From the NCBI GenBank assembly GCA_964291215.2, contig OZ219791.1, positions 1,504,001 through 1,568,000 of the forward strand: a stretch of DNA of 64,000 bases, in the 5' to 3' direction. The notes under the pieces were generated by a model. It saw only the letters and a program-made list of their open reading frames with translations, was not told the DNA's origin and ran no database searches. Source of the DNA: Alphaproteobacteria bacterium. Its GTDB lineage: Bacteria; Pseudomonadota; Alphaproteobacteria; MPNO01; UBA830. The position numbers and the translations under genes were made by a program. Each line of letters starts with the position of its first letter. Positions within the stretch are counted from its first letter, which is position 1. Positions 9,311 to 50,173 of this stretch are shown here, piece by piece.

Positions 9311-9839
9311 GGGTGCAGTTCTCGTATGGCGCATCCAAATCATTGATTTAACACGGTTGTGCGGTTGCGAGGTAGCGGCGAAAACGGGTTTTCGTGACAA
9401 TCGCCCGTTTCGGGACAGGATTTTGTCACGACCCCCGCGGCATCGACAGGGTGATCCGGGCGCTGCGCCACCTTCGCGATACCGCGGCGCCAACGGGCCG
9501 ACATCGACAGGGAACTGTCCTTCTTCCGCAAGCATCGCCACCGCATGCGCTACCACGCGCTGAAGCAACCGGCTCGGGAATTGTCGAGGCGGCAAACAAG
9601 ACCCTCGTCACACAGCGCACGAAACGCTCCTGCATGCGCTGGCGCATCGTCGGCGGACAATCACCTTCCGCGCCCTGCTCGAATCCGGCCGCTTCGAGAG
9701 CACGTGGACGGCCATGATCGGTGCAGACGACGCACCAGCCAACGACAACATCAGCCCAAATCACACCCCGGCACTGGCCGCATGAGATGAACAAATGGTG
9801 GTACTGAGCCTGCAACTGTGCCATACGAGAGTCTCACCC
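9311..9839 (+). mobile_element. non-autonomous ISKra4-type derivative (MITE-like, 529 bp), copy 1
   Basis: TIRs GGGTGCAGTTCTCGTATGGC / GGGTGAGACTCTCGTATGGC (rc); perfect 8-bp TSD GACAAGAC (9303-9310, 9840-9847); retains transposase C-terminal GSGIVEAANKTLVTQR.KRS.MRW. Confidence 0.85.
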
Positions 9840-9851
9840 GACAAGACTTCG

Positions 9852-9976
9852 GTAAGCGTTCGGTCACGAGGTGGTCGTTGGTGATTGTCATCGGTTGAGG
9901 ATGCGTATTATCGGCAGATTGTCAGAAGGCTCGGAACCGACCAGAATCAGCCATTACTGTGTGACCGAACGCTTAC
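9852..9976. mobile_element. 125-bp MITE with IS66-like GTAA ends
   Basis: Perfect 16-bp TIR GTAAGCGTTCGGTCAC (9852-9867) / GTGACCGAACGCTTAC (9961-9976); only TTCG of a possible TSD is shared. Confidence 0.7.
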
Positions 9977-10136
9977 CTGATTCGGAGACACGAAATCCGA
10001 ATGCATTGGGGCTCGCGTCATTACAGATCGCCTCCTTGATCGTAATTTTCCGTGCCAAGAAGGCCTCATCGAGCCTTGGCGGCACGATGGCTGCGCAACG
10101 CAGACTGAGAAATCTCGCCAGTTGTCGCTGGATTAG
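9977..10136. mobile_element. 160-bp MITE-like repeat, copy A
   Basis: Imperfect TIR CTGATTCGGAGAC / GTCGCTGGATTAG; colinear with interrupted copy B (10350-10356 + 10695-10769 + 15205-15282). Confidence 0.65.
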
Positions 10137-10149
10137 CAGCGTGGGATCA

Positions 10150-10260
10150 CCGTGCGCAACCCGCGCCAGGCGATCACCGCGCTGGCGCAGGCCGGCGCGG
10201 CCGACAAGACCGTCTTCGTGTTCTCGGCCGACAACGCCCACAATGTCCTGCAACCCGGCG
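10150..10260 (+). pseudogene. fragment of S8 (subtilisin-like) serine peptidase
   Basis: QAITALAQAGAADKTVFVFSADNAHN resembles the V.AAGN oxyanion region; matching downstream part at 15290-15900. Confidence 0.45.
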
Positions 10261-10356
10261 GACTTCATAGACAATCCCGGTCTTTGCACTGGGGGCGGAT
10301 TGCCAGCCCGCGTCAATGTCCGATCGGTCAAGATCACGACGATCCCATGCTAATTC

Positions 10357-10688
10357 GTGCCTGCCCAAAAATGCACGACCGCGCGATTCTATTGGCGAAA
10401 TCGTGATATAGAGGGGACGAAGAATCCCGCTTTGGGACGGGAATTGACCGATCAGACCGGGAATCCGCCGGATTTTCGGAAAACTTCGCGAGAATTGCCA
10501 CGCGAAACGTTATCCGCCCGCAGCCGGAATTGGGCTAGGTTGCGCTGGATTCTCGGTTGGAAGGGCCCTGTGCCGCTGCGAATCGGCAGGAATCCCCCTG
10601 GAAACGGAGCACCCGGAGGCTCCGGGAGTGGATCAAACCCGAAATTTCGCCGGAGGGTCAGCCAAAACGGTCATTTCCGCGCAGGCAC
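10357..10688. mobile_element. 332-bp non-coding IS derivative (MITE), family unassigned
   Basis: TIR GTGCCTGCCCAAAAATG / GTGCCTGCGCGGAAATG (rc); 6-bp TSD TAATTC (10351-10356, 10689-10694). Confidence 0.75.
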
Positions 10689-11002
10689 TAATTCGGAGAC
10701 GCGAAATCCGAAAGCGTTGGGGCTCGCGTCATCGCAGCTCGCCTCCTTGATCGCAATTTTTGTGCCGAGGTATCTACTCACCCCTAGTTGGGTTCTGATT
10801 GGTCGTAGTGCTCGTTGATGATGTCTGCGTCTTTTCCGTCGAGGGCGATCTGGGTGGCGACGAGTGGATTGTAGCCGAGTGCGGCCATGGAGGTGAGGTA
10901 GCTTGGCACCATGCTTTTGCGTGGAGCGGAAGCATCCGGACACCTTGAGCTTTGCCATCCTGATCTTCTGTTCTCCGGCATTGTTGGTGAAGCTGACGTC
11001 GG

Positions 11003-12529
11003 GTGTGCCAGGCAAACTGGTGGAATGTGGCCGGGTGCAAGTCCCGAGAGAGGCTAATTTCTCCGTGAACCATGCGTCGTGAGGCGAAGCGTTGGGGAGC
11101 GGCAGGCCAGGCTATTGAGCCACGAGATGCTTTGAAACCGGAGTGCCGAGGTCGTGGCCGAAGGCAACGAGCCGCGTTGGTGAGGGGGGCTCCGCGGGGT
11201 CCGAGAACCATGGCCGAAGCAGGGACCTGGGGGGTCTTGCCCCTCTGTCGTGGAGGGGCCGCAGAGGAAATTCCGTAAGCCGATGATGAACGAGAAGTCA
11301 GATTCGGCCATAGTACCGCTGAAGGCGGCGAACAAGGGCTCTCCGGAGCCTGCGGAGTTGCTGGAGGGAAGGGCAATGCGGTTGGCCCGCGCCGCGCGCA
11401 GAAGCGGGGGTCACAGGCGGCTGAACGCAGGTAGCGAAGAGGAACCCGGAAGAGCGTCTTTACTCCACCACGTGACGGTCGACGTTCTGCACGATGCGTT
11501 CCATTCCTTGAGGAAGGACGCGGCGGCGGGGCGTTGTGTGGCAAGCGTACGCGGAGGGTGTGGAACTGCTGCACGCCCGTGTGCACAGGGGTGCGTACCG
11601 GGCGCCTCCAGGGTTTACATACCCAAGGAGGATGGAGGGCAACGACCGCTTGCCTCGGACAAGATTCTTCAGCGGGCGGTGTGATTCTGGTGCCGCGAGA
11701 CGGAGTTCCTCGGGTTTAGTTACGGCTTCCGGCCGGGGCGCATCATGCGCCGTCACGGTGGAACGGCGGAAGGTCAACTGGATCGTTGACGCCCCTTCGA
11801 CAACCGCGACCATCTGGTCGCGATGCTCGGGAAACGGATCGGGGGGTCTGATCATCAAGTGACGCCGGCGTCATGGAAGGGACCGACCGGCAAGGGAACA
11901 CCGCAAGGGGCGGCGCCTTGCGAACCTGCACTACGTACGACTGGTTCCAGAACCACTGGCGCAAGCGGATGGCTGGAGGCGACACGATCACTGTCCGCTA
12001 TGCGGACGACTTCGTGTGCGGCTTTCAGCATCTGGGCGACGCGCGGCGCTGAGACCTTGGGGAGAGACTGGCCCACTTGAACTGCACCCGGAAAATCATC
12101 GAGTTCGGTCGGTTTGCCAGAGCGAACCGCCGGAAGCGTGGGCAAGACGTTCGACTTCCTCGGCATGACGCACTTCTGCGAACAGACGAGGAAAGGCAGG
12201 TTCAGGGTCGGTCGCAAACGGGCACCCTGCGGCGGATCAAGGAGGCCTTGCGCAGGCGGTGGCACGATAACCGGCACGAAACGGCCAAGTGGTGAGTTAT
12301 CAACGGCTGCTACTACGCCGTTCCAGGAAGCAGCCTGCAGAAGTTCATACACCAATGCAAACAGCTGCGTGCCCTTCGGCGACGCTCCCAAAAGGACTTC
12401 ACCGGGGACATAGACACCCTCACCGCTGCCCACTGAGCCCGTGGCCAAACCAGCGCCTTGTCGTCAGGGGAGGAGCGAACAGCGCACGTCCGGTTCTGTG
12501 CGGGGGGTAACCCGGTTCCCTACCGCGAT
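11003..12529 (+). mobile_element. group II intron, copy 1 (1527 bp), degenerate RT/maturase ORF, no endonuclease domain seen
   Basis: 5' GTGTG, 3' ...GCACGTCCGGTTCTGTGCGGGGGG...CCCTACCGCGAT; RT fragments LLHHVTVD, VYIPKEDG.QRPL, FSYGFRPGR, GTPQG, RYADDF, TFDFLG spread over frames. Confidence 0.93.
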
Positions 12530-13963
12530 GTGTGCCAGGCAAACTGGTGGAATGTGGCCGGGTGCAAGTCCCGAGAGAGGCTAATTTCTCCGTGAACCAT
12601 GCGTCGTGAGGCGAAGCGTTGGGGAGCGACAGGCTAGGCTATTGAGCCACGAGATGCTTTGAAACCGGAGTGCCGAGGTCGTGGCCGAAGGCAACGAGCC
12701 GCGTTGGTGAGGGGGGCTCCGCGGGGTCCGAGAACCATGGCCGAAGCAGGGACCTGGGAGGTCTTGCCCCTCTGTCGTGGAGGGGCCGCAGAGGAAATTC
12801 CGTAAGCCGATGATGAACGAGAAGTCAGATTCGGCCATAGTACCGCTGAAGGCGGCGAACAAGGGCTCTGCGGAGTTGCTGGAGGGAAGGGCAATGCGGT
12901 TGGCCCGCGCCGCGCGCAGAAGCGGGGGTCACAGGCGGCAGGTAGCGAAGAGGAACCCGGAAGAGCGTCTTTACTCCACCACGTGATGTTCTGCGTTCCA
13001 TTCCTTGAGGAAGGATGCGGCGGCGGGGCGTTGTGTGGCAAACGTACGGGGTGGAACTGCCTGCACGCCCGTGTGCACAGGGGCGGGCGCCTCCAGGGTC
13101 TACATTCCCAAGGAGGGGCAACTTGCCTCGGACAAGATTCTTCAGCGGGCGGTGTGATTCTGGTGCCGCGAAACGGAGTTCCTCGGTTCCGGCCGGGGCG
13201 CATCATGCGCCGTCACGGTGGAACGGCGGAAGGTCAACTGGATCGTTGACGCCCCTTCGACAACCGCGACCATCTGGTTGCGATGCTCGGGAAACGGATC
13301 GGGGGGTCTGATCATCAAGTGACGCCGGCGTCATGGAAGGGACCGACTGGCAAGGGAACACCGCAAGGGGCGGCGCCTTGCGAACCTGCACTACGTGCGA
13401 CTGGTTCCAGAACCACTGGCGCAAGCGGGACACGATCATTATGCGGACGACTTCGTGTGCGGCTTTCAGCATCTGGGCGACGCTGGGACCTTGGGGAGAG
13501 ACTGGCCCACTTGAACTGCACCCGGAAAATCATCGAGTTCGGTCGGTTTGCCAGAGCGAACCGCCGGAAGCGTGGACAAGACGTTCGACTTCCTCGGCAT
13601 GACGCACTTCTGCGAACAGACGAGGAAAGGCAGGTTCAGGGTCGGTCGCAAACGGGCACCCTGCGGCGGATCAAGGAGGCCTTGCGCAAGCGGTGGCACG
13701 ATAACCGGCACGAAACGGCCAAGTGGTGAGTTATCAACGGCTGCTACTACGCCGTTCCAGGAAGCAGCCTGCAGAAGTTCATACACCAATGCAAACAGCT
13801 GCGTGCCCTTCGGCGACGCTCCCAAAAGGACTTCACCGGGGACACAGACACCCTCACCGCTGCCCACTGAGCCCGTGGCCAAACCAGCGCCTTGTCGTCA
13901 GGGGAGGAGCGAACAGCGCACGTCCGGTTCTGTGCGGGGGGTAACCCGGTTCCCTACCGCGAT
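12530..13963 (+). mobile_element. group II intron, copy 2 (1434 bp), further eroded
   Basis: Begins at the base immediately after copy 1; same ends; 93 bp shorter net (12 small deletions, one 1-bp gain). Confidence 0.93.
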
Positions 13964-15289
13964 GGTTGTCTATGAAGCGCAGGTTTTCGTGTTTCACGAG
14001 ACGTTCGTGCAGGTTGTGCGCGTCGGACTTGCGTCCACGTTTTCCTTTCGGCGGCGGCGGGATGTCGGGCAGTTCCTTGGCGCCCTGATGGTGCGGTAGC
14101 GCTTGTGCACGGCCCGGCGTCGTTCAGGGTCTTGGATGCGCTCTTGTTGACCTTGTGGCAGGGAGCAGGCTCTTCATCAGTCGCGCGGTAGCCTCGACGA
14201 CGAAGGTCAGTTCGCGCAGCAGGTGGCTGCCGCTGGTGGCTACACTGCCATGTACGAGGCCCAGGACGCCCTTGTAGCACGGGCCGATCTCTTGCTTGCG
14301 GTGCGGGAACTTGCACGTCCCGACGACATGAAGCCACTTGCTGTTGATCCGAAATCGTCGACATCGGGCGTTGCAGGAGGTGCGCCACGGCAGCCTCCTC
14401 CCATGACGCATCGTGAAAGCATAGCCGAGGCTTCGGAGAGCTTGATGCCGGAGATCGCCTGCACGAGCGCGACAGCACGGCGCAGGGACAGCATCTGGGC
14501 GACCAGCAGGTTGATGACGAGGGCCTAGATGCCGATGCCGTACTGCACGGGATGTTGTCGGGGAACCGGCCCTTGCACTTCGGGCATTCCTTGATCTCGA
14601 CGCGGCGCTCGACGACCTCGAACACGATGTCGTGCGGCGCTCCCGATCGACGGGGCCGTCGATGTCGGCGCCGCAGGCGTCGCAGGCCGCGACCGTCTCC
14701 TCGACGATGGCAGGTTGTCGCCCATCTGCTGGTTCGGCTTTGGGCCCTTGCTCCCGGCACGCTCTCGTCCGTCTGTGACGGCGGCAGACCGGAGTTCCGG
14801 CTCGTGCGTGGTCTTCTCCAGAAGGACGACGATGATGATGTCGAGCAGGATGACGAGGACGCGGATGACGGCCTCTTTCGGCACCTTGCCGGCAGCGCCG
14901 CGGTCTTGGCCGCTTCGAACTCCTCGCGCGCCGCCCGTCGCCATCACCCGGCCTTGCGCTTCATCAGCGCGCCGCTTCCGAGATGCGTTTTCACATACAG
15001 ATCATGCGGGGGCCGGAGCCCCGGAAGCAGCTGGCACAGCCCGCTCGTCGCCTTCGATCCAAAGTAGCCCACTGGCGGTCCCCGTCGTTCTCGATGACCA
15101 CCACTAAACGAATCGGCCTGCAGTGTCAAATCTCCACGAAAACCCGTTCGTTACTCTACCCCGACATCAAGCCGGAACCAGGGGGTGAGCAGTTACGTGC
15201 CGAGAAGGCCCCATCGAGCCTTGGCGACACGATTGCAGCGCGACGCAAACTGAGAAAATCTCACTAGTCGTCGCCGGATTAGAAGCGTG

Positions 15290-15900
15290 GGATCGCCGTG
15301 GGTCAAGATTTTCCCCGGCATGCCGGTGCACTTCCCCGAGCTGCGCGGCCACGTGATCGGCGCCATCGCCGTAGAGCCTGACGACAACAGCGACGGCGAC
15401 TATGAGATCGCCGACTTCTCCAACCGTTGCGGTATCGCGGCCCGGTGGTGCATCGTGCCGCCCGGGGATGCCGGTCATGGCGGCCTATTTCGGCCCTCCC
15501 TGCGGCTCCAACCCCAATTGCCGCACTGTTTCCGGCAGCGCCCCCGGTACATGAGGCGTTGCCGCCTATGTCAGGAATACCTCCGCTGCCGCGCCGTTCG
15601 TGACCGGTGGGCTCATCGTGATGAAGCATGTCTTCCGCGGCCAGATGACCAATACGGAACTGGTCTCCCGGCTGATGGCGACGGCCAACAAGCAGGGCAT
15701 CTACGCCGACAGCAGAATCTACGGCGAGGGACTGATGGACTTGGGCGCTGCGACGGCGCCGTTCTGGTTCTCCCTGGGCGGCTTCGCCGCCGAAGGGGCC
15801 GGCCCCGGCCTCGCTGCACGCCTTCATGGCGCCGCAACGGACCGGCCGGGCGACCGGCTCCTGCATCCTGCGATGCACCGAACGAGCCATCCTGCCCGGC
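15290..15900 (+). pseudogene. S8 family serine peptidase pseudogene
   Basis: PELRGHVI, IADFSNRCGIAARWCI.PPG, catalytic-Ser region TSAAAPFVTGG, ELVSRLMATA, YGEGLMDLGAATAP in different frames. Confidence 0.8.
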
Positions 15901-15938
15901 TGCCGACCTCGGAATGAATGGACGCAAGCAGCTCCGCC

Positions 15939-17063
15939 TCAATAACGCTCGACGATATGTAGCCCGCGGAGCCGGTCGATGACATAGATCAGCCCGCGAT
16001 CGTCGATCGTAACGTCATTGCTGCACAGGCGATCGCAGCCCGGCTGCGGATCGGGTTCGAAATGCCCGACCTCGATCGGCGCATGGGGATCGGCAATGTC
16101 GACTAGCCTCAAGCCTTTCGCGAACCAGGCAAAGGGGATGACCGTGTCGGTCACAATCTCGCAAGGTTGATGACAACCGGTGTAGGGAGGCTGCGGGCTG
16201 CCATCCGGGTCGAGACCAGCAACCTGGAAGCTGGAAACCGGAATCGGGTTGGTCTCGTCGGTGATGTCGACAACCCAAGCGAATGACGGCGCGTGAGGGC
16301 GCAGCTTGGCGACATCTTCGTCGGCAACAACAAGGACGCGATGCCCCCGGATCTCGAACGGAATCGGCAGCGCGGTATGGGTCGGATGCGGGAATGTCGG
16401 ACCGGAGTTGAGGCCCGAAATCATGCGCGGATTGGCAAGATCCTCGATGTCGAGGATGAAGAATCCGTGATGCCAGTAGCTCACATAGAGCCGATCCCCC
16501 ATCCGCAACGGATGATGGCATCGCGGCTCGGGACCGTCATCCCACACATATTCCTCACCGCCGGCTTCCCACTGTCCGAGAATCCACCATCTGCAGACTT
16601 CCTCGGGTTTCTCGGGATTGTCGAGATCGAGCACCAGCATGATCGGGCCCCGGTACCCCTCGACAGTCGAAGAGAAATACATGTACCGGCCATCGAAATC
16701 AAAGCGGTGGACGCCACGGCCGACGGTGTCCCAGGTCGCGACAAGCTCCGGTTTCTCCCTGTCCGACACGTCATAGATTCCGACACCCGTGGCAAAGTCG
16801 TCGGGTTTGCCGGGGCCGATGAGTTCATGGTTCCGCACCATGACATCGCCGCGAGCATGAACCTTGTGGGAATGGGTTCCGGGCGGCATCCCGACATGGG
16901 ACAGTAGCCGGGGGCTTTTCGGATCCGAGACGTCGACGATGCTGGTGCCGAACGGATTGGCCATGTGCCCGATATAGGCGGTGGTTCCGTCGACCCGAAT
17001 CTGACCCCCGCCCGCGCAGTCGAAATAGCCGACCTCGCGCAAACCTTCGCTGCTTGCCATCAC
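15939..17063 (-). CDS. LVIVD-repeat beta-propeller protein
   Basis: Repeated G(T/L).IVDVSDP..P motifs; His-rich HSHK, HHP, HPTHT segments. Confidence 0.8.
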   Translation of the reverse strand: MMASSEGLREVGYFDCAGGGQIRVDGTTAYIGHMANPFGTSIVDVSDPKSPRLLSHVGMPPGTHSHKVHARGDVMVRNHELIGPGKPDDFATGVGIYDVSDREKPELVATWDTVGRGVHRFDFDGRYMYFSSTVEGYRGPIMLVLDLDNPEKPEEVCRWWILGQWEAGGEEYVWDDGPEPRCHHPLRMGDRLYVSYWHHGFFILDIEDLANPRMISGLNSGPTFPHPTHTALPIPFEIRGHRVLVVADEDVAKLRPHAPSFAWVVDITDETNPIPVSSFQVAGLDPDGSPQPPYTGCHQPCEIVTDTVIPFAWFAKGLRLVDIADPHAPIEVGHFEPDPQPGCDRLCSNDVTIDDRGLIYVIDRLRGLHIVERY

Positions 17064-17252
17064 GAACCCTCCCGACCACGCTGGGCGGCATCCAGCCGAA
17101 AACCGCCGAATGTCGTTGCCCGAAGGGTAGCGTAGTCACTGCGGGATTGCGACAGACCGCACCCACCCGTGCGCGAATACCCGGACCGGCTATCGCTGGC
17201 CTGACCATCCTGCGATGATGCGTTCCAGTACCTTGCCGCGGAGGATCGGACA

Positions 17253-18095
17253 TTGCCCGAAACGCAACCCTTTCCGGAAATCCCTTTCGCGGAAGCGACC
17301 GGAGATATCAGGCTGATCTACGACGCGATCTCGGAATCGCTGGGTGTCGGACTCGTCAATCTAGTCTATCGGCATCTCGCCACGAAGCAGGGTTGTCTCG
17401 AATGGACCTGGTCGCTTCTCGGCCCGAGCCTGCAGGACGGTACTCTCGCCCGGTGCGGCGAGCGCCTCGTCGCCTTGGTCGGAGAAAATGCCGGTGCCGC
17501 GCACGCCGGTCCGGCAATTTCGCTGGCGAACTTCGGACTCGACGACAGAGACGCCGCAAGCGTCCTGTGCACCATCGACGCCTACAACCGCGCCAATCCG
17601 GTAAACGCCGTCGCATTCCAGTTGCTTCACATGGCCGTCAAGGGCGATGTCGCTGCTCCCCGATACGTAGCGCCACCCCGGGGGCGGGCGAACCTCGATG
17701 CGCTGCTTCCGATGGCGGCGTTCGACGGGCTCCCGGCCGCAACGCATGACCTTCTGCACCGGCTCGCTGCGCAGACGGTGGGAACGGATGCGCCAATGAT
17801 TCCGTCGCTGTTTCGCCATTTCACGGACTGGCCGAACCTCCTGAAGGCATTTTCGGAGATTCTCCGGGCCCTCGGCGACAGTGCGGAACGAGAGGCGCTG
17901 GTCGCACGAGTGATGGCAGCAGCAAAGGAACAGGCCGGCGCGGTCCTCCACGACCTGCCGGATCCCGGCGATGGCGCGGTACGCCTTGCACCGCCGCTGC
18001 GGACGGCGGTTGCGGAGACCGCGACGAACTTCGTTCCGGCCATCTGCAACATGATCGTGATCGGAGCGATGCTCCGGCCAAATCTGGAGCGGTGA
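17253..18095 (+). CDS. hypothetical protein, possibly AhpD-like/DehI-like fold
   Basis: EATGDIRLIYDAI...VNLVYRHLA and second-half PSLFRHFTDWP internal duplication. Confidence 0.55.
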   Translation: MPETQPFPEIPFAEATGDIRLIYDAISESLGVGLVNLVYRHLATKQGCLEWTWSLLGPSLQDGTLARCGERLVALVGENAGAAHAGPAISLANFGLDDRDAASVLCTIDAYNRANPVNAVAFQLLHMAVKGDVAAPRYVAPPRGRANLDALLPMAAFDGLPAATHDLLHRLAAQTVGTDAPMIPSLFRHFTDWPNLLKAFSEILRALGDSAEREALVARVMAAAKEQAGAVLHDLPDPGDGAVRLAPPLRTAVAETATNFVPAICNMIVIGAMLRPNLER

Positions 18096-18221
18096 GAATA
18101 TGAAGCCCGACGGACCGTTCCAAGGCGAAGCCCGCTCGAACGCGCCGGGCGATCACGGTGCCGGTGCTGGAAGCGCAGGTAGATGTCAGCCATTCAGGAA
18201 GAAAGCAACGGTGGAATCCTG

Positions 18222-19137
18222 TCACGCCGCTTCGATATCGGTGAGGGCGAAGTCGTTGCCCTTGAACAGCAACGGTTCGCCTGTTGTGTACGCAAGCGCG
18301 TAGGCGAAACAGTCTCCGAAATTCAGTGCCGCAGGATGATTGCCCTTGCCGAAGCGCCGTCAGGTGCGCCGGGCCGCCTCGATATGTGCGACTGCAAGGG
18401 TGCAGTTCTCGTATGGCGCATCCAAGTCATTGATTTAACACGGTTGTGCGGTCGAGAGGCAGCGGCGAAAACGGGTTTTCGTGACAATCGCCCGTTTCAG
18501 GACAGGATTTTGTCACGACCCCCGCGGCATCGACAGGGTGATCCGGGCGCTGCGCCACCTTCGCGACACTGCGGCGCCAACGGGCCGACATCGACAGGGA
18601 ACTGTCCTTACTTCCGCAAGCATCGCCACCGCTACCACGCGCTGAAGCAACCGGCTCGGGAATTGTCGAGGCGGCAAACAAGACCCTCGTCACACAGCGC
18701 ATGAAACGCTCCGGCATGCGCTGGCGTATCGTCGGCGGACAATCACCTTCCGCGCCCTGCTCGAAGCCGGCCGCTTCGAGAGCGCGTGGACGGCCATGAT
18801 CGGTGCAGACGGCGCACCAGCCAACGACAACATCAGCCCAAATCACACCCCGGCACTGGCCGCATGAGATGAACAAATGGTACTGAGCCTGCAACTGTGC
18901 CATACGAAACTCTCACCCGACCGTAACCGGCATCGACTCGATCTCAGCCGCTGCCAGAAGCGCGTCGAGCTCGTGCCCAGCCGCCGCCCCGCCTCGGCTT
19001 TCCACGACGATGAACGCTTCCAAGACACTGGCAATCGACATGCGACAGGGTGTTGTCGCCATGATGGCTCCGGCATAGCGTTTCGCGTCCGCCTCGCTGA
19101 ACAGAATCGCCAGCACTGCCGAGGTGTCGACGATCGC
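18222..19137 (-). pseudogene. vapC: VapC (PIN) toxin pseudogene interrupted by MITE
   Basis: IVDTSAVLAILFSE...MPVTV | MITE | [32 protein letters not shown]...LLFKGNDF; start position reads GCG; in-frame TGA at 18360-18362. Confidence 0.9.
18398..18918 (+). mobile_element. ISKra4-type MITE-like element, copy 2 (521 bp)
   Basis: Near-identical to 9311-9839; flanks GACTGCAA / GACCGTAA are a TSD with 2 transitions; splits vapC. Confidence 0.88.
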
Positions 19138-21662: not shown

Positions 21663-21666
21663 CACC

Positions 21667-28292: not shown

Positions 28293-30062
28293 TCAGGTGT
28301 TTCCCACGCTGCATTCAATTTTGCTGTCTTCTGCTGTCCGGAGGTTTCACGGCGTGCCGGGTTTTCCGGCTTCGGGGCCGTCCGCGGTCGTCGCCGGCGG
28401 CGTTATCGGCGCGTGGGCGGCTTGTGGGCGGCGTCCGGGAATCGGCCGGACACCATTGGCGCTCAGGGCTGCGACGGCTTCCCGGCGGTCGAGCCGCCGC
28501 CGCCGTGTTTCGGCGAGGCTCTCGCGTCGGTTGGCGAAGATCACCGCGAGCGCGATGTTGTCGAGTCTGGCGCGGTTTGCCGGTCAGGCAGGCGTTTTCG
28601 CCGAAGACGCAGTCTCGGTGGTTCATGTTTTCCGCGGCCCGGTGCCTGCGGCCGCAGCAGTTCCTCTGGCGACGCGTGTTGCGCATCGAGCTGATGTACC
28701 GGTGCAGCCGTTGCCGCTCGCTGCGCCGCTGGCGCTCCTTCCCGGCGGCTCGCGGTAGCATGCGGGCGATCTGCCGGAGTAGTTGATCAGGTCCTCGAGC
28801 GGCACGTATCGAGCGCTGCTCGAGGCGGGCCTTGCCTCCTTGAAGCGGCCACTGGCTCCCGGTCGATGCCGTCGAAGGTTTCGGGCGCCCTTGACCGGGA
28901 AGACATGGTCTGCGCCGCAGCGCCGGGTGATCAGCGCCGCCGGCGTCGTGCGGGTGATCACCTTGCCGCGAACATCGGTGCGCTCGAGGAGGTGGCCGCC
29001 AGCTCGCCGTCGTCGAAGTTCAACAGCGCGAAGGGTGCGCCGGAGGCGTGAGAGCCACGGTCTCGTGGTGGCTGTTGCGGTTGGCGTCGCGGATGCGCTT
29101 GCCGTTGGCGGCAAGCGCCCGGGCGAGCCCGCGGCCGAGCACGTCCTCGAGCGCCTCAGGATCGATCGACTGCCCGGTGGAGGGTCGCCTTGGAGGGCGG
29201 CTCGCGCAGCCCCGTCCTCGGGTTCCGCCGATGGCCTCGAGCTCGTCCCCGGACAGCGGCCGCGCAAACTGCGCAGCTGCCTTTCATGTTCGCAAGCTCG
29301 GCGAGAACGTGAGCACACCGTGTGCTTTCTGCGCGGCGGAAGTCCTCGATCGCCGCCAGCTCGTCGTGCAGCGAACGCATCACTTCGGAACCCCGGGGAG
29401 GAGGCAGGCGGCGCCCGGCAGCGCCTGCGGGCGCGACAGCAGCCGTCGCGCCGCACAACGAAAATCTCCTTGCCATGGGGGTCGGTGCAGCGCCCGCGGG
29501 CGAATCCCCTGGCACGCCAGCCCGCCGCCTTGTGCCCGCAAAACGCTCCGGATCGCAGAACGTCTCCGCCACCTGGTGGCCGCAGGCCCAGTCGTCGGCC
29601 AGCCGCCGCGTCGTAAGAAAGAAGGAGGCAAGGTTCGGAAACGTTCCCGGCGCCGCACGCACCAGCAGTCGCGTGTTGTCAGATCAAGCCACTGCTGCTC
29701 CGGCTTCCAGCCACCGGTCGCGGCACTTGAAGGCACCGTCACGCCGCCAGACCACTGCCCCCTGAAGGACGCAATATGGCACCGCCCCGCCAGACGGCGA
29801 AACCCGAGATAGTCGTCCATCAACGCATCCCGCAGCGGACGCTCCTCAGACTTCGCGAACCTCGGACAGACCCTTCCGGAGCTGCGACGTGAATCAGACA
29901 GGACGCGATGTGCATGTGAACCGACATCCCCGCACCATGACAACTCCAGTGCAGGAAAGCCAGCGAAAACTGCAAAAAAACCTCTCGCACCAACTCGCGC
30001 CCCCGCAAAACCCAAGTACTGCCTTGAAAAATAAAACAGAATTTAGCGTAAGATCATCCTGA
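28293..30062 (-). mobile_element. ISAs1-family element with N-terminal DUF4338 (DruA-like) domain, degraded
   Basis: Imperfect TIR TCAGG..TC..ACGCT..ATTC at both ends; direct repeat CAGACCG (28286-28292, 30063-30069); fragments YLGFRRLAGR, FPNLASFFL, AETFCDPERFAGT, DFRRA, PPSKATLHR, DVRGKVIT, GADHVFPVKG, ENMNHRDCVFGENAC. Confidence 0.82.
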
Positions 30063-39738: not shown

Positions 39739-39810
39739 CCACCAGGTTCAGGGCAGGCGAAGGGTCACCGGCCGCAGCTCCGCGCGCGTGGAACCGGCAG
39801 GCCGACCGCG

Positions 39811-40314: not shown

Positions 40315-40985
40315 CCTGCGCTCGTCTGTCTGCACCCCTTTGTCGGCTGACTGGCCTCCCCGGCAATCCCGGTTGCGAAAGGACCGCTCCTGCCGCTCCA
40401 TGCGTCGCGCCAGATATGCCGGCACCCCGTCATGCTACCACAGACACTGGCACCGCTTGAAGGGTACGCGGCCCATCCACGGCCGCGTATCGCGGGCGCC
40501 ACGGCCAAAGCAGGCCTGCTGTTCGGCGGATGCGCGCGTCATCCGATTCGCCGCCATGCACTGGGCGCAGCCGTCCACGGCGCCTGCTGCGATCACATTC
40601 GACAGGTGATCGTCCGCGGGGCGCCGAAAGCCCCGATGTCCGGGTCGTTGCGCAGCACCCCGAATTTGCCGGCACATCTTGCCCAGGCGGTCTTCGTCAT
40701 CATGGCTCAGTCTGCGTTGAAGCCAAGCCCGAGGAATCCAGACACAGCGCTCCGGAACAGCGGGGGTCTGAACCGAAACGCCACCCCACAGCTTGAGCGC
40801 TGCGGGCTCGGGCCCAAAAAAACGGCTCTCGACGGGTTGCCGAAATCCGCCAACTTGGCTAGTTTGCGAAACAGGGAAGAACCTGTCCTCCTCGCTGCTC
40901 TGACCGACAAGGGCACTGGCGCTTCGCGAATGGAAGCGCGGTGTACAGACTGTCGGGCAGCAGAGTTCACCTATACGGATCGCGC

Positions 40986-43468
<2,483 letters not shown>

Positions 43469-43492
43469 GAGCCGCACCCGGCGGATCTGGAC

Positions 43493-44410
43493 ATGACCGA
43501 CCGCTCGATCAGCGGAACCGTCGGCGTCGCGGCCGGACTTCAGGACGGCGCGTCGGTCGCGGACTTCGTCGCGCTCCTCAAGCCGCGGGTAATGTCGCTG
43601 GTCGTGTTCACCGGCCTCGCCGGAGTGGTCGTCGCGCCGGGTGGCGCACATCCGATCGTCGCAGCGATAGCCGTCCTGTGCATTGCCGTCGCCACCGGTG
43701 CGTCCGGTGCCATCAACATGTGGTACGAGCGCGATATCGACGCCCTGATGGACCGTACGCGGAACCGGCCGCTGCCGGCCGGGCGCATGCGCCCGGATAC
43801 CGCGCTGGCGTTCGGCGTCATTCTTGCCGGCGGCTCGGTGATGGTCATGGCGCTCGGCGTGAACTGGCAGGCGGCGGCGCTGCTGGCGCTCGCCATCGGT
43901 TTCTACGTGTTCGTCTATACTGTCTGGCTCAAACGCCGCACACCGCAGAACATCGTCATCGGCGGCGCGGCCGGCGCCTTCCCGCCGATAATCGGCTGGG
44001 CTGCGGTCACCGGCAGCATCGACCCTGGCGGCATCGCGCTGTTCGTGCTGATCTTCATGTGGACACCGCCGCATTTCTGGGCGCTTGCGCTCTACAAGCA
44101 CGGCGACTACGAGAATGCCGGCGTGCCCATGCTGCCGGTCGTCGTCGGCGTCCGGGAGACCCGCCGGCAGACATTGCTCTATACAGCACTCCTGTTCCCG
44201 GTGTCGCTGGGACCATGGTTCGTCGGCGCAGCCAGCGGTGCCTGGGCGCTGTTCGCCGCCACCGCAGGGCTGGTCTTTCTCGCTCTGGCGGTCGATGTCG
44301 TGCGTAGCGCCAGCGAACGATCGGCACGGCGGATGTTTGCGTTCTCGGTCCTTTACCTGTTCCTGCTCTTCGGCGGCCTCATGATCGACAGCGTGGCGGG
44401 GGGCTGGTAG
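43493..44410 (+). CDS. ctaB: protoheme IX farnesyltransferase
   Basis: LKPRVMSLV, DIDALMDRTRNRP, WTPPHFWAL. Confidence 0.96.
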   Translation: MTDRSISGTVGVAAGLQDGASVADFVALLKPRVMSLVVFTGLAGVVVAPGGAHPIVAAIAVLCIAVATGASGAINMWYERDIDALMDRTRNRPLPAGRMRPDTALAFGVILAGGSVMVMALGVNWQAAALLALAIGFYVFVYTVWLKRRTPQNIVIGGAAGAFPPIIGWAAVTGSIDPGGIALFVLIFMWTPPHFWALALYKHGDYENAGVPMLPVVVGVRETRRQTLLYTALLFPVSLGPWFVGAASGAWALFAATAGLVFLALAVDVVRSASERSARRMFAFSVLYLFLLFGGLMIDSVAGGW

Positions 44411-44413
44411 GCG

Positions 44414-44545
44414 ATGCGCCGACTCTCCGAAATGCACCGTCGGCGCCGCAGCCGCAACATCGCGATTGCCGCCGCGATCTTCGCGCTCGCCTTCCTCTTC
44501 TACGTCATGTCCATCGTCCGCATGTCCGGCGGCGCGGTAGGCTGA
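44414..44545 (+). CDS. CoxF-like small membrane protein (43 aa, absent from ORF track)
   Basis: MRRLSEMHRRRRSRNIAIAAAIFALAFLFYVMSIVRMSGGAVG fills the ctaB-ctaG gap; basic N-terminus plus one TM. Confidence 0.8.
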   Translation: MRRLSEMHRRRRSRNIAIAAAIFALAFLFYVMSIVRMSGGAVG

Positions 44546-44546
44546 C

Positions 44547-45140
44547 ATGGCTGTCCCGCTCGCTGCCCGCAACCGTCGCATCGCCGTCACGGCATTCTGC
44601 TTTGCCGCGCTGATGGTCGGTGCCGCGTTCGCCGCCGTACCGCTTTACAAGATCTTCTGCCAGGTGACGGGCTATGGCGGGACGCCGCAGATCGCCGAAA
44701 CCGCGCCCGCGACAGTGCTGGAAAGGCGCATGACGGTGCGCTTCAATGCCGATACCGACCCCGCTCTGCTCTGGGAGTTCGCGCCCGTACAACGCAAGAT
44801 CAGAATCCGCGTCGGTGAGCAGGCATTGGCCTTCTATCGTGCCCGCAACCTGTCGGACCGCGCTGTCACCGGAACGGCCACCTTCAACGTTACACCGCTG
44901 AAGGCTGGCCAGTATTTCAGCAAGATCGACTGCTTCTGTTTCACCGAGCAGACGCTTGCGCCCGGGGCGTCCGCCGACATGCCGGTCACCTTCTTTGTCG
45001 ATCCCGCGATAGCCGACGATCCCAATCTCGACGACGTGACCACCATCACGCTGTCGTACACCTTCTTCGAAACCGAGCGCGAACCCGACGACAACCGCAC
45101 GGCGGGCGCCGCCGGGGCCCCGGCGGCGCACGACAGCTAG
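44547..45140 (+). CDS. ctaG: cytochrome c oxidase assembly protein CtaG/Cox11
   Basis: VPLYKIFCQVTGYGGT, KIDCFCFTEQ, ITLSYTFF. Confidence 0.96.
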   Translation: MAVPLAARNRRIAVTAFCFAALMVGAAFAAVPLYKIFCQVTGYGGTPQIAETAPATVLERRMTVRFNADTDPALLWEFAPVQRKIRIRVGEQALAFYRARNLSDRAVTGTATFNVTPLKAGQYFSKIDCFCFTEQTLAPGASADMPVTFFVDPAIADDPNLDDVTTITLSYTFFETEREPDDNRTAGAAGAPAAHDS

Positions 45141-45158
45141 ACAACGGAGCAAGAGCAC

Positions 45159-45989
45159 ATGAGTTCGCAAGGGGATACAGGCGCAGGCGCCGCACAGTAC
45201 GACTACCACGGCCACAAGCATCCCTACCATCTGGTGGATCCGAGTCCGTGGCCTGCGATCGGCGCGGTTTCCGCGTTCGTCCTGACCGTCGGCACGGTGC
45301 TGTACATGCACGAGGACATCGCGTGGGTGATGATCCTCGGATTCGTCGGCATCCTCGCAACGATGGCGGGCTGGTTCTGGGACGTAATCCAGGAAGCCGA
45401 GTTCAAGGGCTTCCACAATCCTGTCGTGCAGGTCGGGATGCGCTACGGGATGGCGCTGTTCATCGCCTCCGAGGTCATGTTTTTCGTCGCCTGGTTCTGG
45501 GCGTATTTCAACGCGGCGCTGTTCCCGACGCTGCAGATCGAAGGCGTGTGGCCGCCGCCGGGCGTTCAGACCTTCGATCCCTGGGACCTGCCGTTCCTGA
45601 ACACCCTGATCCTGCTCATGTCGGGGGTGACCGTCACATGGGCGCACCACGCGCTACGCGAGGGCAACCGCAAGCATCTGATACAGGGTCTCGGGCTGAC
45701 GATCTTTCTCGGCATCTGCTTTTCCTGTGTCCAAGCCTACGAGTACGGCCACGCGGCATTCGGGTTCAGCGAAGGAATCTACCCTTCAACCTTCTTCATG
45801 GCGACAGGGTTCCACGGTTTCCACGTGCTGGTGGGGACGATTTTCCTGATCGTCTGCTTTTTCCGTGCCCGTGCCGGACATTTCAAGCCGGATCATCACT
45901 TCGGGTTCGAGGCCGCAGCCTGGTACTGGCACTTCGTCGATGTTGTGTGGCTGTTCCTGTTCTGCTGCATCTACTGGTGGGGCCAGTAG
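45159..45989 (+). CDS. coxC: cytochrome c oxidase subunit III
   Basis: HPYHLVDPSPWP, SEVMFF, TGFHGFHV, AAWYWHFVDVVW. Confidence 0.97.
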   Translation: MSSQGDTGAGAAQYDYHGHKHPYHLVDPSPWPAIGAVSAFVLTVGTVLYMHEDIAWVMILGFVGILATMAGWFWDVIQEAEFKGFHNPVVQVGMRYGMALFIASEVMFFVAWFWAYFNAALFPTLQIEGVWPPPGVQTFDPWDLPFLNTLILLMSGVTVTWAHHALREGNRKHLIQGLGLTIFLGICFSCVQAYEYGHAAFGFSEGIYPSTFFMATGFHGFHVLVGTIFLIVCFFRARAGHFKPDHHFGFEAAAWYWHFVDVVWLFLFCCIYWWGQ

Positions 45990-45996
45990 GGCCTCG

Positions 45997-46512
45997 TCAA
46001 TCGCGGCCGACGGCCGCGGTTTCCGCCGACGCGGGCTCCCACAGCCCGGCAGTGTCAAGATCGACGGACATGGTGACAGCGTCGACCGGCGATCCGCTCG
46101 GACGGGAGTAGTAGTCAGGGCGCCGGCCAACCGGCCGAAAGCCCCGGCGATCATAGAGCCTGCGGGCAGCACCGTTGTCCTCTGCAACTTCGAGGAAAAG
46201 CGAACTCGCACCGGACCGGTAGGCGCTGGTCATGACGCCTTCAAGAAGAAGCGAACCGATGCCGGAGCCGCGCACTTCAGGCGCAACGGCGAGGGTAAGA
46301 AGCTCACATTCATCGGTCGCGATGCGGAAGAGCGTAAAACCGGACAGCGTCCACCGGAGATCCGACTTCGCAGCGATTCCACTTGCTCCCGGCAGCGCCA
46401 GAATCCTGCGCAACATGATTCCGTTCCAGGCGTCGTCAAAGGACAAGGCATGGATGCGGGCCATCTCACCGACATCGCCGTCCCGAACCAGCGCAAGCGT
46501 GTGGCCGGTCAC
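45997..46512 (-). CDS. rimI: RimI-like GNAT acetyltransferase
   Basis: ECELLTLAV, RGSGIG, LFLEVAEDN, VGRRPDYY; GTG overlaps tsaB stop. Confidence 0.88.
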   Translation of the reverse strand: MTGHTLALVRDGDVGEMARIHALSFDDAWNGIMLRRILALPGASGIAAKSDLRWTLSGFTLFRIATDECELLTLAVAPEVRGSGIGSLLLEGVMTSAYRSGASSLFLEVAEDNGAARRLYDRRGFRPVGRRPDYYSRPSGSPVDAVTMSVDLDTAGLWEPASAETAAVGRD

Positions 46513-47204
46513 TGCTGTCCTCCTGACCGCTTCGGCTCCGTCGTATGAGGCGCCTGCAGATAGAGAGGTACGAGGCTGCCGCCTCCCTGCGTTAGTTGTC
46601 CGCGTCGCGCGAAACCGGCCAACCGCCCCACATCCGCCGCACACGGAAGCTGGCCGTCGGCCACACGTCGGATGTCGCCGGATTCCATATGCCAGCCAGC
46701 AGCAAAGCGTGCCACCCCATTGCCGGCAAGGAAATAGTTCTCGTGTTCGAGCCTTTTGCCTATTGCGTCACCCTCCAGGATAGCCGGGGCGGACAACGGC
46801 ATGCGATCAGCATCGTAATCCTGAACGAAATAGGCGGTGCGCCGCGTATCGAGAATGCACATGACCGGGCTCCGGCTCGAAGCCGACGCCAACGCGCCGT
46901 AGGCCACCGCCTCAAGGGCGGAAACGCCAACCGCCACTGCACGCGAGGCGAGCGCGAAACCCTGAGCCGCAGCAATGCCCGTGCGAATACCCGTAAAGGA
47001 GCCGGGGCCGACTGTCACGCCGATGGTATCAAGGTCCCCGATCCGTTTACCGGCGGTTTCCATCACTCGCATTACCATCGGCACAAGCGCTTCCGCATGA
47101 GCGCGCGTCATCGATCTTTCCTCGGCGGCAAGAACATTGTCGCCGCCCAAGAGGGCGACTGAACAAATGTCGGCGCTGGTATCGAAAGCCAGTGTCAGCG
47201 TCAT
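46509..47204 (-). CDS. tsaB: t6A biosynthesis protein TsaB
   Basis: LAFDTS, HAEAL, GPGSFTGIRTG, DTRR, PLYL. Confidence 0.93.
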   Translation of the reverse strand: MTLTLAFDTSADICSVALLGGDNVLAAEERSMTRAHAEALVPMVMRVMETAGKRIGDLDTIGVTVGPGSFTGIRTGIAAAQGFALASRAVAVGVSALEAVAYGALASASSRSPVMCILDTRRTAYFVQDYDADRMPLSAPAILEGDAIGKRLEHENYFLAGNGVARFAAGWHMESGDIRRVADGQLPCAADVGRLAGFARRGQLTQGGGSLVPLYLQAPHTTEPKRSGGQQ

Positions 47205-47386
47205 GGAACGTGGATCCTCCAAGCGACTGTTCCAGATTGGCACGCCCGGGCCGCAGAAGCCCCCGCGCGGCAATTCCCTGGAAGACAGCGGGGAGAGCTC
47301 TGTTAGACGGTATAGGGAGAGCCTTCAGGCTCCGAAAAGCCGTTTTTCAGGCCTGCCCCAATACCGATTTTCGTCAAAGTGAAACA

Positions 47387-47533
47387 CTAAACGCAACTTC
47401 ACTGACCGGGAAGAAGGTTTTGTCCCATGCATGACCGGTGTTTTGGCCCGAAGCAGGTTGTCACGCTTATATAAGCTGTAAGCATCGCGATCCGGGTCCA
47501 TTCCGAGCAGTTCGAACGCCCTTCCCCCCCTGC
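47387..47533 (-). mobile_element. 3' end remnant of IS1634-like element (a)
   Basis: C-terminal RAFELLGMDP; terminus CTAAACGCAACTTC; truncated at an IS256 end. Confidence 0.55.
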
Positions 47534-47602
47534 GGTACTGTAACTTGATGTCTGGAAATTTGTCTGAGGTTTGCGCTTTGAGGCGTTTCACTGGGGGGCT
47601 AG
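47534..47602 (+). repeat. IS256-family left end (69 bp, ends at CTAG), copy 1
   Basis: GGTACTGTAACTTGATGTCTGGAAATTTGTC...CACTGGGGGGCTAG; also at 47792, 49095 (inverted) and 50106 (inverted). Confidence 0.85.
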
Positions 47603-47791
47603 CCTGAAGTTCCAGAGCCGATCAGACGTAAGTGCCTGATAGAAATGACATTCTATACATTTCAGCGGTCTGGGTACACTATGGCTTCATGCCCAGGAGC
47701 TTGAAAGCCCTTCTCTGGAGCGGCGTGGGCCGTGTGGTGACCGGGAAGGGTTCGGCGCCCGCAAGGCGGGGCGCCACGGTGTTGCGCGGGT
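47599..47791 (-). mobile_element. 3' end remnant of IS1634-like element (b)
   Basis: C-terminal TTRPTPLQRRAFKLLGMKP*; terminus ...GGAACTTCAGG-CTAG sits on the IS256 hairpin CTAG. Confidence 0.65.
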
Positions 47792-47860
47792 GGTACTGTA
47801 ACTTGATGTCTGGAAATTTGTCTGAGGTTTGCGCTTTGAGGCGTTTCACTGGGGGGCTAG
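47792..47860 (+). repeat. IS256-family left end, copy 2
   Basis: Identical to 47534-47602. Confidence 0.85.
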
Positions 47861-49094
47861 TAGTCCACCGGCATTGTATTGATGGTTTTTGGTGGGTAGT
47901 ATTTTCGTGTCGGCGTTCGTTGGAATCCGGACAGTGCCGATATCTACACGGGCAGATGCCGAACAGGCAGCCGCAGCCCCATGCGCAGGTCCGGACAACG
48001 GGCATGCCCGCAGGTCTTCGGCGCAATGACAGGAGCGGCGCATATGGCCAACTCTCGGGGCAGGAAGCTCTACCGCGTGACCCTTTCGGCGCAGGAGCGC
48101 CGGGATCTGCAGGCGATTGTCGACGGCACCGGGGCTGTCTGGCGTCGGCGCCGGGCACAGGTCCTGATGCTGAGGGGGCGCTTGTCGATGCCGACATAGG
48201 GCTGGGCACGGCGACGGTCGAGCGCTTGCGCAAGCGCTGCGTCCTGGAGGGGCTGGACGCCGCTCTCAGCCGCAAGGAGCAGGTGAACCGCCGGCCAAAA
48301 CGGCTGGACGGGGCGATGGAGGCGAAGCTGATCGCCCTGTTCGTCCCCGCCCGAGGGCTGTGGACGCTGAAGCTGCTCGCCGGCCGTCTGGTGGAGATGG
48401 AGATTGTCGAGCGCATTTCGGAAGAAACGGTCAGGAAGACGCTAAAAAAAGAGATCAAGCCGTGGCTGAAGCAGTACTGGTGCATTCCACCGCATCGGAG
48501 CGCACAGTTCGTGGCGGCGGACATGCTTGACATTTATCAGCGGAACTTTGCCGGGGACGAGGTGCTGGAGACCAGCCGGCAGCAGACGAAGGAAACCCCC
48601 CGTCCTCCGGTCAGCCGGAGGTGGTCGACTATGAATATGAGCGCAACGGCACGGCCAACCTCTTCATGGCCTTTGCGCCCAACGAGAACTGGCGCACGGT
48701 GAAAGTCACCGACCGCCGCGGGACTGGGCACACTTCATCCGGGAGCTTGCCGACGACCATTTCCCCGACAGGAAGATCGTGCTGGACAATCTGAACACGC
48801 ACAGTCGCTGTATGAAGCCTTCGAGCCCGAGGAGGCGGGTGCGAAAGCGGTTCGAGTTTCGCTATACGCCGAAGCACGGAAGCTGGCTCAACATGGCCGA
48901 AATCGAGATCGGTGCGCTGTCGCGGCAGTGTCTTCGGCGACGCATTCCCGACCGCGACACCATGCTGCGGGAGACCGTGGCGTGGGTCGAGCGCCGCAAT
49001 GCGGCCGATGTCACTGTCGACTGGCGTTTCACGACGAAGGATGCCCGGACGAAACTGAAGTCACTATATCCGTCAATACAATAATGCCAGACTA
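47861..49094 (+). mobile_element. IS630-family element, degraded
   Basis: Flanked by CTAG on both sides; TIR TAGTC...ATTGTATTGAYGG; fragments WTLKLLA, ETVRKTLKK (A7 slippery run), YWCIPP, DYEYERNGT, LDNLNTH, YTPKHGSWLNMAEIE. Confidence 0.92.
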
Positions 49095-49163
49095 CTAGCC
49101 CCCCAGTGAAACACCTCAAAGCGCAAACCTCAGACAAATTTCCAGACATCAAGTTACAGTACC
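49095..49163 (-). repeat. IS256-family left end, copy 3 (inverted)
   Basis: Reverse complement of copy 2 with one substitution. Confidence 0.85.
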
Positions 49164-49965
49164 TCCATTTCTCGGCAGGCCGAAGATGTAATGCGCGAGT
49201 TCGGGAGCTTGTCCTCTTCTCAGGTCAGCCGAGCCACCAGGTTGCTCGATGAAGAACTCGCCGCGCAACCGGCCCCTGATGAAATACCTGATCCTGGATG
49301 CGCGCTATGAAAAAGCCCGCCATGACGGCGTTGTGCGCGATGTCGCAGTGCTCTCGGCCATCGGAATAGGGGCTGCAGGCACGTTCTGGGGCTCTCTGTG
49401 GCGCTCTCCGAGGCCGAGGTCCATTGGAGAGCCTTCCTGGAAAGCTTGCTAGCCCTGCATGGTACGACCTTCATCGTCTCGGATGACCATGCTGGGTTGA
49501 AAGCGGCACGGTGCTGGGCGCGGCGACGTGGCAGCGCTGCCAGTTCCACTTGGCGCAAAACGCCGTGCACCGAACAACGACATCAGGAAACGTATTGGAA
49601 AACAGCTCGGAGCCACGCCTCCTCACTCCAAACCGCCGAGGCTGAACTGGGCGCCCTCGTGGCCAGCGACAAGCATCCAGGCTTCCTGGCTGGAAAACAA
49701 TGCGGGGCTCGCTGTCTTCACCTTGCCCGATGCTCACCACAAGCGTATGCGAACCTCGAACGGCATCGAGCGGCCGATCCAGCAAGAGCTCAAGCGGCGC
49801 ACCTCCAAAGTCAGGGTCTTTCCGAACCTCGCCTCGTTGGAGCGCCTCTCAACCGCGGTCCTCATCGACGAAAAATGGGAAACCGAAACCAAGGCATACA
49901 TCAAATGGGAACAGCTCGATGACTGAGAGCTTCTCGACAATTTCCAGACATCAGGTTGCGTAATC
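49164..49965 (+). mobile_element. IS256-family transposase central/C-terminal remnant with right end
   Basis: YLILDARYEK, SEAEVHW, VSDDHAGL, WQRCQFH, MRTSNGIER, ELKRRT, VRVFPN; IRR GACAATTTCCAGACATCAGGTTGCGTAATC matches the IRL. Confidence 0.9.
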
Positions 49966-50173
49966 CCCAGATCCGTTGCTCCGTTTGCGATCAGACGTTC
50001 CAAAACGGCCTCAATCGTCGTAGTGTGTCGCAGGTCCATTCGCTTCCTCCATGAATGTTTACAGCTCCATGGGATAGTACGATGGCGCTGCGTTTCACTG
50101 GGGGGCTAGCCCCCAGTGAAACGCCTCAAAGCGCAAACCTCAGACAAATTTCCAGACATCAAGTTACAGTACC
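49966..50173 (-). mobile_element. IS256 left end plus transposase N-terminus, inverted relative to the C-terminal part
   Basis: IRL ends at 50173; intact palindrome GCGTTTCACTGGGGGGCTAGCCCCCAGTGAAACGC (50090-50124); MDLRHTTTIEAVLERLIANG with GGAGG RBS. Confidence 0.82.

Follow-up and report, generated by a model that had tools for sequence, protein, structure and literature searches.

A window of 64,000 nucleotides (nt) from the genome of an alphaproteobacterium (G000:C2:1504001-1568000) holds two group II introns and remnants of IS66, ISAs1-like, IS630 and IS256 insertion sequences (ISs), all broken by short deletions. Gaps were counted against the longest form of each element rebuilt from its copies in the genome, and nearly all are 5–7 nt long or sums thereof. 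A first-pass annotation, made from the letters alone, had described these elements as shredded by size-restricted microdeletions, and the shredding is real. The source genome (G000; 6.15 Mb, 64% GC, two contigs) was compared with itself by BLAST in tiles and is one of five genomes of its genus in our comparison set, with its sister G001 and with G002, G003 and G004. Repeated 20-mers cover about 33% of its bases, and 125 of the 573 sampled single-copy genes with a match in G001 are broken in G000 (some possibly false frames); the genome is therefore degenerating.

The two introns adjoin each other on the forward strand. Copy 1 (positions 11003–12529; 1527 bp, against about 1880 bp for the long form of the family) carries 50 gaps and has lost the 5′ strand of catalytic domain V, and copy 2 (12530–13963; 1434 bp) carries 59. 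Global alignment of one with the other confirms the 94 bp of gaps first listed, all in copy 2 and of 9, 7, 14, 6, 7, 6, 6, 13, 12, 7 and 7 nt, alongside one 1-nt insertion; the total stands, although two of the listed 7-nt deletions are a single 14-nt gap in the alignment. Copy 2 falls in a different cluster of single-nucleotide polymorphisms (SNPs) from copy 1, and the pair is therefore unlikely to have arisen by simple tandem duplication. That the long form came first is evident from the longest intron copy in the genome, which keeps a reverse transcriptase frame of 386 codons and an Rfam match to domains V–VI, and from G002, which has long IS66 copies with full frames. Rfam RF00029 matches a near-intact intron copy and neither of the window copies. 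Among full-length introns in the genome, 45 of 49 lie in leading-strand orientation by GC skew and several form head-to-tail arrays of 2–3 copies, as expected for fork-dependent homing of the intron into its own junction.

The introns interrupt an IS66 on the reverse strand, which carries 41 gaps in all. Its split-off end (10770–11002) has gaps of 11, 7, 7 and 6 nt, and its body (13964–15200), one of about 165 copies genome-wide, has 37; the family was assigned through a match to PF03050 on a less-deleted copy. The ISAs1-like element (28293–30060, reverse strand), likewise identified from less-deleted genome copies, retains pieces of DruA-like, DDE_Tnp_1_assoc and DDE_Tnp_1 domains and has 53 gaps relative to a long form reconstructed from 5 copies; the DruA-like (Druantia) domain lies upstream of the transposase pieces. 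On the forward strand, an IS630 remnant (47860–49100; 54 copies) has 15 gaps and an IS256 transposase remnant (49180–49965; about 80 copies) has 13, of 4–7 nt. IS256-type terminal repeats with an adjoining piece (47530–47860, forward) lie to the left of the IS630, and an IS256-type terminal segment (49965–50173, forward; 60 copies) has gaps of 1, 9 and 11 nt. The family names given in the first-pass annotation thus hold for the intron (Rfam; RVT_1) and for these four ISs. Its ISKra4 label for a 529-bp repeat at 9311–9839 (22 near-full copies) has no Pfam support, and this copy is also undeleted relative to its own family. That family is lightly affected, with 2.2 deletions per copy or 4 per kb; a second copy at 18398–18918 has one 6-nt and one 3-nt gap. 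A MITE-like short repeat of about 180 bp (9977–10154; 102 copies) has gaps of 10 and 4 nt.

An assembly or polishing artefact in repeats had been named as the main alternative to a biological process, and the read support for the deletions does consist of assembled contigs, with the three main runs coming from one study. Contigs assembled from these runs (X1–X3, of which X1 may be the source of G000) match the deleted forms exactly or nearly so, including the junctions of the ISAs1-like element and the empty-site joint 11002–13964, in which the IS66 lacks the intron; a further run, X8, matched only short, divergent pieces, and runs with a small share gave no evidence of habitat. With 11 mismatches in 822 flank bases, X3 is another strain, and the contigs of this 1.3% divergent strain match the deleted junctions. 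The pattern recurs in an independent genome, G002, which is about 81% identical to G000 and has its own size peak (160 distinct gaps of 5 nt, 216 of 6 nt and 33 of 7 nt at 14 loci, against 11 of 4 nt) and its own motif. Genes preferentially keep in-frame deletions, and young repeats are clean. We consider an artefact extremely improbable.

Other relatives look different. G004 has an ordinary spectrum (54 gaps of 1 nt and 4 of 5–7 nt over 47 kb of repeat alignment), G003 has no gaps in 13.7 kb, and the repeats of G001 itself yielded only 1.4 kb of alignment. As sampled, the trait is present in two of the genus's five genomes (G000 and G002), with G004 unaffected and G001 and G003 provisionally so. 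In an IS-rich genome of another family (G030), nearly all of the IS66 matches listed have open frames, so IS load alone is not the cause.

Across the repeats of G000, distinct gap contexts number 1345, 474, 295, 193, 1092, 2229, 1412 and 332 for lengths of 1 to 8 nt, and the size restriction first noticed in one pair of introns is thus a sharp genome-wide peak at 5–7 nt. A second bump at 11–14 nt fits adjacent pairs, and merging leaves about 2547 distinct 5–7-nt sites. Excerpts of a survey of bacterial pseudogenes (PMC6054270) describe indel lengths that follow a power law apart from a bump at multiples of 3, with deletions outnumbering insertions and some microhomology. The last two features are shared here; in contrast to the spectrum in those excerpts, 5 and 7 nt rival 6 nt, gaps of 1–4 nt are few and different copies have deletions at the same sites.

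Microhomology is only modestly enriched at the junctions in G000, being absent at 37% of sites (53% expected) and at least 3 nt long at 23% (7% expected); microhomology at several junctions had been noted, but the proposal that the ends are joined through it is not supported, given the 37% of sites that have none. Microhomology-mediated end joining or slippage was accordingly rejected as the main route, with 0–1 nt of microhomology at 60% of the 2547 sites. It may supply some seeds, and at least 3 nt is found in 33 of 85 single-copy events. In G002, 62% of 93 sites have deleted pieces that start with AT on one strand, against 9% of controls, rarely as ATG and mostly preceded by a pyrimidine; the same preference is weak in G000 (19% against 10%), where a strict motif, a hairpin or a restriction site at a fixed offset was rejected for want of anything but weak preferences. 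The strand of the element has no effect, and a transcript- or reverse-transcriptase-templated origin was set aside because both orientations occur inside single G002 copies. A sequence preference combined with a 5–7-nt size range would point to an enzyme.

We also compared single-copy DNA of G000 and G001 (808 kb aligned of 1.29 Mb). Non-coding DNA has 63 gaps of 5–7 nt on the G000 side and 11 on the G001 side, and coding DNA 52 and 4, with 38 of the 52 being in-frame 6-mers. This excess on one side in both kinds of DNA means that the lineage makes 5–7-nt deletions everywhere at a low rate, host genes included. Such single-copy deletions often come in pairs 20–70 bp apart. Repeats differ by about a hundredfold: the five heavily deleted families carry 11–25 deletions per kb in each copy, against 0.093 per kb in 123 single-copy genes dead from other lesions (162 kb with 15 deletions of 5–7 nt, 81 indels of 1–2 nt and 114 stops). 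The claim that repeats are singled out relative to single-copy pseudogenes is borne out. The claim that host genes stay intact needs correcting: some carry 6-nt deletions that keep the frame, and several of those in the window have been killed by stops or by indels of 1 nt. Five broken host genes in the window (near 21665, 25532, 40432, 55539 and 58350), in which comparison with G001 shows stops or indels of 1 or 10 nt, serve as controls without 5–7-nt shredding.

These comparisons bear on the idea of a genome-wide mutator that acts at hot spots regardless of copy number, with the contrast between repeats and genes left to selection alone. The lineage-specific excess in single-copy DNA speaks for it, and the purine–pyrimidine start and the length of the deleted pieces suggest a variant in which gaps left by RNA primers are sealed without fill-in. 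It cannot be the full explanation, since dead single-copy genes have more than 100 times fewer such deletions than repeats. There is also no replication-strand bias (4 of 100 repeat sites at p<0.05, and 12 against 15 in single-copy DNA, a comparison of weak power), on which ground the primer-gap origin was rejected, and we found one DnaG and no Prim-Pol gene. We give the mutator a very slim chance as the whole account; the low-rate process is probably the source of the seed deletions. Deletions of 8–10 nt are also in excess in the non-coding DNA of G000 (29, against 8 in G001). This class is relatively commoner in single-copy DNA (29 to 63 of 5–7 nt) than in repeats (548 to 4733), which suggests that a size filter acts when deletions are copied.

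What distinguishes repeats becomes apparent from how the deletions are distributed among copies. We tabulated five families (362 copies within 6% of their consensus), calling an event rare in 1–2 copies and common in at least 3. Rare and common events number 12 and 156 for 5–7-nt deletions, 25 and 2 for 1–2-nt indels, and 582 and 238 for SNPs. Of the common deletion sites, 105 are deleted in more than half of the copies and 138 have a single exact junction. New 5–7-nt deletions per 1–2-nt indel are similarly infrequent in repeats (12:25, or 0.48), dead genes (15:81) and non-coding DNA (63:212), the latter two giving 0.19–0.30, and these ratios do not support the proposal that repeats receive many new microhomology-joined lesions. 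The repeat excess arises from a limited set of fixed sites common to most copies, that is, from spread and not from new events.

The fixed sites are combined in mosaic fashion across copies. On a SNP tree of 49 intron copies, deletions require 5.05 changes each and SNPs 1.55, and within 20 nt four-gamete conflicts affect 34 of 101 deletion–SNP pairs against 12 of 140 SNP pairs. SNPs conflict with one another in IS66 (14 of 19 pairs), IS630 (138 of 275), IS256 (33 of 57) and the intron (17 of 261), and from these mosaics it follows that family copies exchange sequence. One domain V deletion is shared by 33 of the 49 intron copies, across SNP clusters. A group II intron without a functional domain V cannot retrohome, so these copies would not have moved by retrohoming in the deleted state, although some could have ridden inside IS66. 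In G002, two IS66 subfamilies 16% apart have sites in common: 15 of the 36 in one of them coincide exactly with sites in the other, where position alone would predict about 1.6% per site. Identical flanking sequence is longer at the shared sites (median 21 against 10 nt), and one shared junction has a neighbouring base change that is present in the deleted copies of both subfamilies and in neither intact reference. The IS66 copies of G002 also include chimaeras.

Copy number matters as well. At 1–3% divergence, 5–7-nt gaps rise fivefold from 2 to 20 or more copies (0.89, 1.67, 3.35, 3.51 and 4.90 per kb), and 1–2-nt gaps stay at 0.4–0.9 per kb whatever the copy number. A 12-copy IS66 family diverged by less than 0.7% has no 5–7-nt gap, and neither do two 2-copy IS256 pairs. 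Old families have lost about 8–23% of their length and most of their copies have lost reading frames or the intron catalytic domain, whereas young or low-copy families without a seed deletion remain intact.

Could these distributions reflect descent alone, with deleted non-autonomous elements amplified in trans and then shuffled by ordinary, unbiased exchange? Short intron copies do form a low-divergence cluster, an intron inside IS66 could ride with it, and SNPs are also mosaic in the IS families. Descent is largely refuted, however, by the number of common events per rare event, which is 13 for 5–7-nt deletions, 0.41 for SNPs and 0.08 for 1–2-nt indels. It also leaves unexplained the identical sites across subfamilies at least 16% apart and the skew to high frequency, and we regard it as quite improbable.

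Our best reading, and a moderately probable one, is copy-to-copy conversion that is biased to deletion and selective for size and sequence. Its first step shows in the pattern already described: short deletions, most often of 6 nt, arise throughout the genome in this lineage at a low rate. Copies of a family would then swap sequence by ordinary recombination, to judge from the SNP mosaics, and RecA is intact. In the paired DNA, MutS and MutL would handle mismatches and loops of 1–4 nt, and a putative nuclease would cut out a 5–7-nt loop, sealing the strand on its shorter partner. A deletion would hence carry along no more than a few flanking bases, and the lost piece would rarely be restored, and the cut would prefer pieces that begin with A–T on either strand (strongly in G002, weakly in G000). 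The outcome would be a self-spreading, one-way brake on mobile DNA. In excerpts of PMC2504288, mismatch repair in Escherichia coli (MutHLS) is efficient up to loops of about 4 nt and loop-directed loop removal is described in yeast. The 5-nt lower edge of the size range seen here matches the bacterial limit. Tentatively, the nuclease might belong to a dedicated anti-mobile-element system that both seeds 5–7-nt deletions at preferred sequences and drives them by loop clipping. Such a system, possible rather than probable, would be a prokaryotic counterpart of the repeat-induced point mutation (RIP) of fungi, using copy number against the elements and gained or retained separately in two lineages.

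Several observations weigh against deletion-biased conversion. We found no responsible enzyme among the families and candidates searched, given below. The counts of rare events are small; the intron tree was built from SNPs, which favours SNPs in the parsimony count; and low-copy repeats may be under selection, inflating the dose effect. SNPs of the IS families are strongly mosaic too, leaving a deletion-specific excess that is clear mainly in the intron and in G002, and the 529-bp repeat is reversed (conflicts in 1 of 5 deletion–SNP pairs against 10 of 14 SNP pairs). Co-conversion of flanks is weak: the divergence ratios at 1–4 nt beside shared deletions are about 0.17, 0.46, 0.53 and 0.73, against 0.31, 0.69, 0.79 and 0.91 in controls, a dip that is mostly an alignment artefact with a residual of about 20–45% within 4 nt. 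In G002, a further shared site has nearly unrelated flanks, and deletions have removed the hexamer ATYGCG in 6 of 7 and in 4 of 7 cases, both observations fitting independent cutting at preferred sequences.

The last points favour cutting afresh, in which a nuclease would excise 5–7 nt at preferred sequences whenever repeats pair or recombine, with no deleted donor; of the readings considered, this is the nearest to the RIP-like process first proposed. The strong G002 motif and the near-constant use of ATYGCG suit this account, as do the site shared despite divergent flanks, the little co-conversion and the compatible dependence on copy number; undeleted copies are also about 1.3–1.5 times more variable inside deletable pieces. 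Fresh cutting accords poorly with G000, in which a weak motif coexists with sites that are either close to fixation or not used at all. The scarcity of rare events relative to common ones, the single junction at most common sites and the untouched 12-copy family count against it as well. We hold it rather unlikely overall, though least so in G002.

Among known systems, deletion-biased non-allelic gene conversion in Drosophila and primates, with a bias of about 3.4-fold (Assis and Kondrashov 2012, PMC3280953, from excerpts of that paper), is the closest in kind. As in those excerpts, length differences between paralogues are resolved to the shorter form and repeats shrink together; in G000 and G002, too, paralogues exchange sequence, as the mosaic SNPs attest, and identical deletions, biased to the deleted state, occur across separate paralogue lineages. 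Unlike the animal process as excerpted there, the present one is bacterial, confined to 5–7 nt, sequence-preferring, apparently near one-way, mostly without neighbouring SNPs and seen in two of five genomes of a genus as sampled. Loop-directed repair, as far as the excerpts of PMC2504288 go, likewise removes loops beyond the range of mismatch repair whatever the position of nicks, which agrees with our 5-nt lower edge, but such repair is described for loops of up to hundreds of nucleotides, its loop-directed removal being shown in yeast, in contrast to an upper edge of about 7 nt and a sequence preference here.

In filamentous fungi, RIP makes new, scattered C-to-T changes in paired copies, set by a cytosine methyltransferase homologue. 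The likeness that the first-pass annotation drew to RIP is apt in effect: repeated DNA is selectively and irreversibly ruined, transposons are inactivated, and the damage is repeat-specific by the hundredfold measure above. The process itself looks more like biased copy-to-copy conversion. The induction of new lesions in just any duplicated sequence is not supported, given the similar rare-event ratios (from small counts) and the untouched 12-copy family. The lesions are deletions at shared sites and not C-to-T transitions, new events are not clearly raised, and a MORC-like ATPase beside a C5 methylase does not track the trait. A 2009 study by Cordaux, to judge by its title, concerns Wolbachia, in which gene conversion among IS copies that no longer function reportedly maintains the elements. 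There, too, dead bacterial IS copies exchange sequence; a size-locked deletion drive is not described in the excerpts of PMC3205602.

We know of no bacterial process that destroys repeated DNA selectively on account of its repetition, and there is none in the literature that we searched. As far as that literature shows, there is no precedent for the size lock, for the sequence preference, for so strong a bias or for a bacterial host. A one-way deletion drive, if true, would explain how a genome that is one-third mobile caps transposon bursts without purging them, and would account, in terms that can be measured, for the way in which IS expansions come to an end in a degenerating genome. It would also make shared indels in repeats unsafe as phylogenetic markers, and an activity that excises loops of one fixed size range, to which it points, is potentially usable for precise editing by short deletions. 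The contrast between relatives with the trait (G000, G002) and without it (G001, G003, G004) makes a search for the gene tractable.

In that search, Ku and an ATP-dependent ligase were found in none of the five genomes, which counts against the Ku/LigD route that had been proposed for screening; Piwi/Argonaute, EndoV, TopIB and Prim-Pol were also found in none of the five. Loss of standard repair was rejected, and with it the suggested loss of mismatch repair, since MutS, MutL, PolA, DnaG, XseA, RecA, UvrC and RNase HI are open in all five genomes, as judged by a matched domain and an open frame. Mismatch-directed cutting by NucS was rejected because the gene was not found in G000 and because shared G002 sites have fewer internal differences; G002 alone has partial NucS_C-like matches, at G002:C1:2513338 and 1374625. 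The first-pass annotation could identify no responsible gene in the window, and none was seen among its proteins scanned, most of its host genes being without annotation.

We also scanned 79 of 126 foreign-looking genes of G000 against Pfam. The MORC-like ATPase, which lies beside the C5 cytosine methylase (G000:C2:3205394-3208602), was rejected because its best homologues are in the unaffected G004, and a DndB-like gene because it is also in G004. Two adjacent low-GC genes encode DEDD exonucleases (G000:C2:2021550-2023306); the first was rejected, having a 72% homologue in G003, with an internal stop, and no close match in G002. Further candidates among the foreign-looking genes are a HerA helicase, OLD/AAA_21-type ATPases (one beside DUF4276), a SWIM–SNF2 pair and type I restriction genes. 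A defence cluster at G000:C1:2258614-2264633 combines an AbiEii toxin–antitoxin pair and an IrrE-like peptidase with a SMODS nucleotidyltransferase and a patatin, resembling a CBASS (cyclic-oligonucleotide-based antiphage signalling system).

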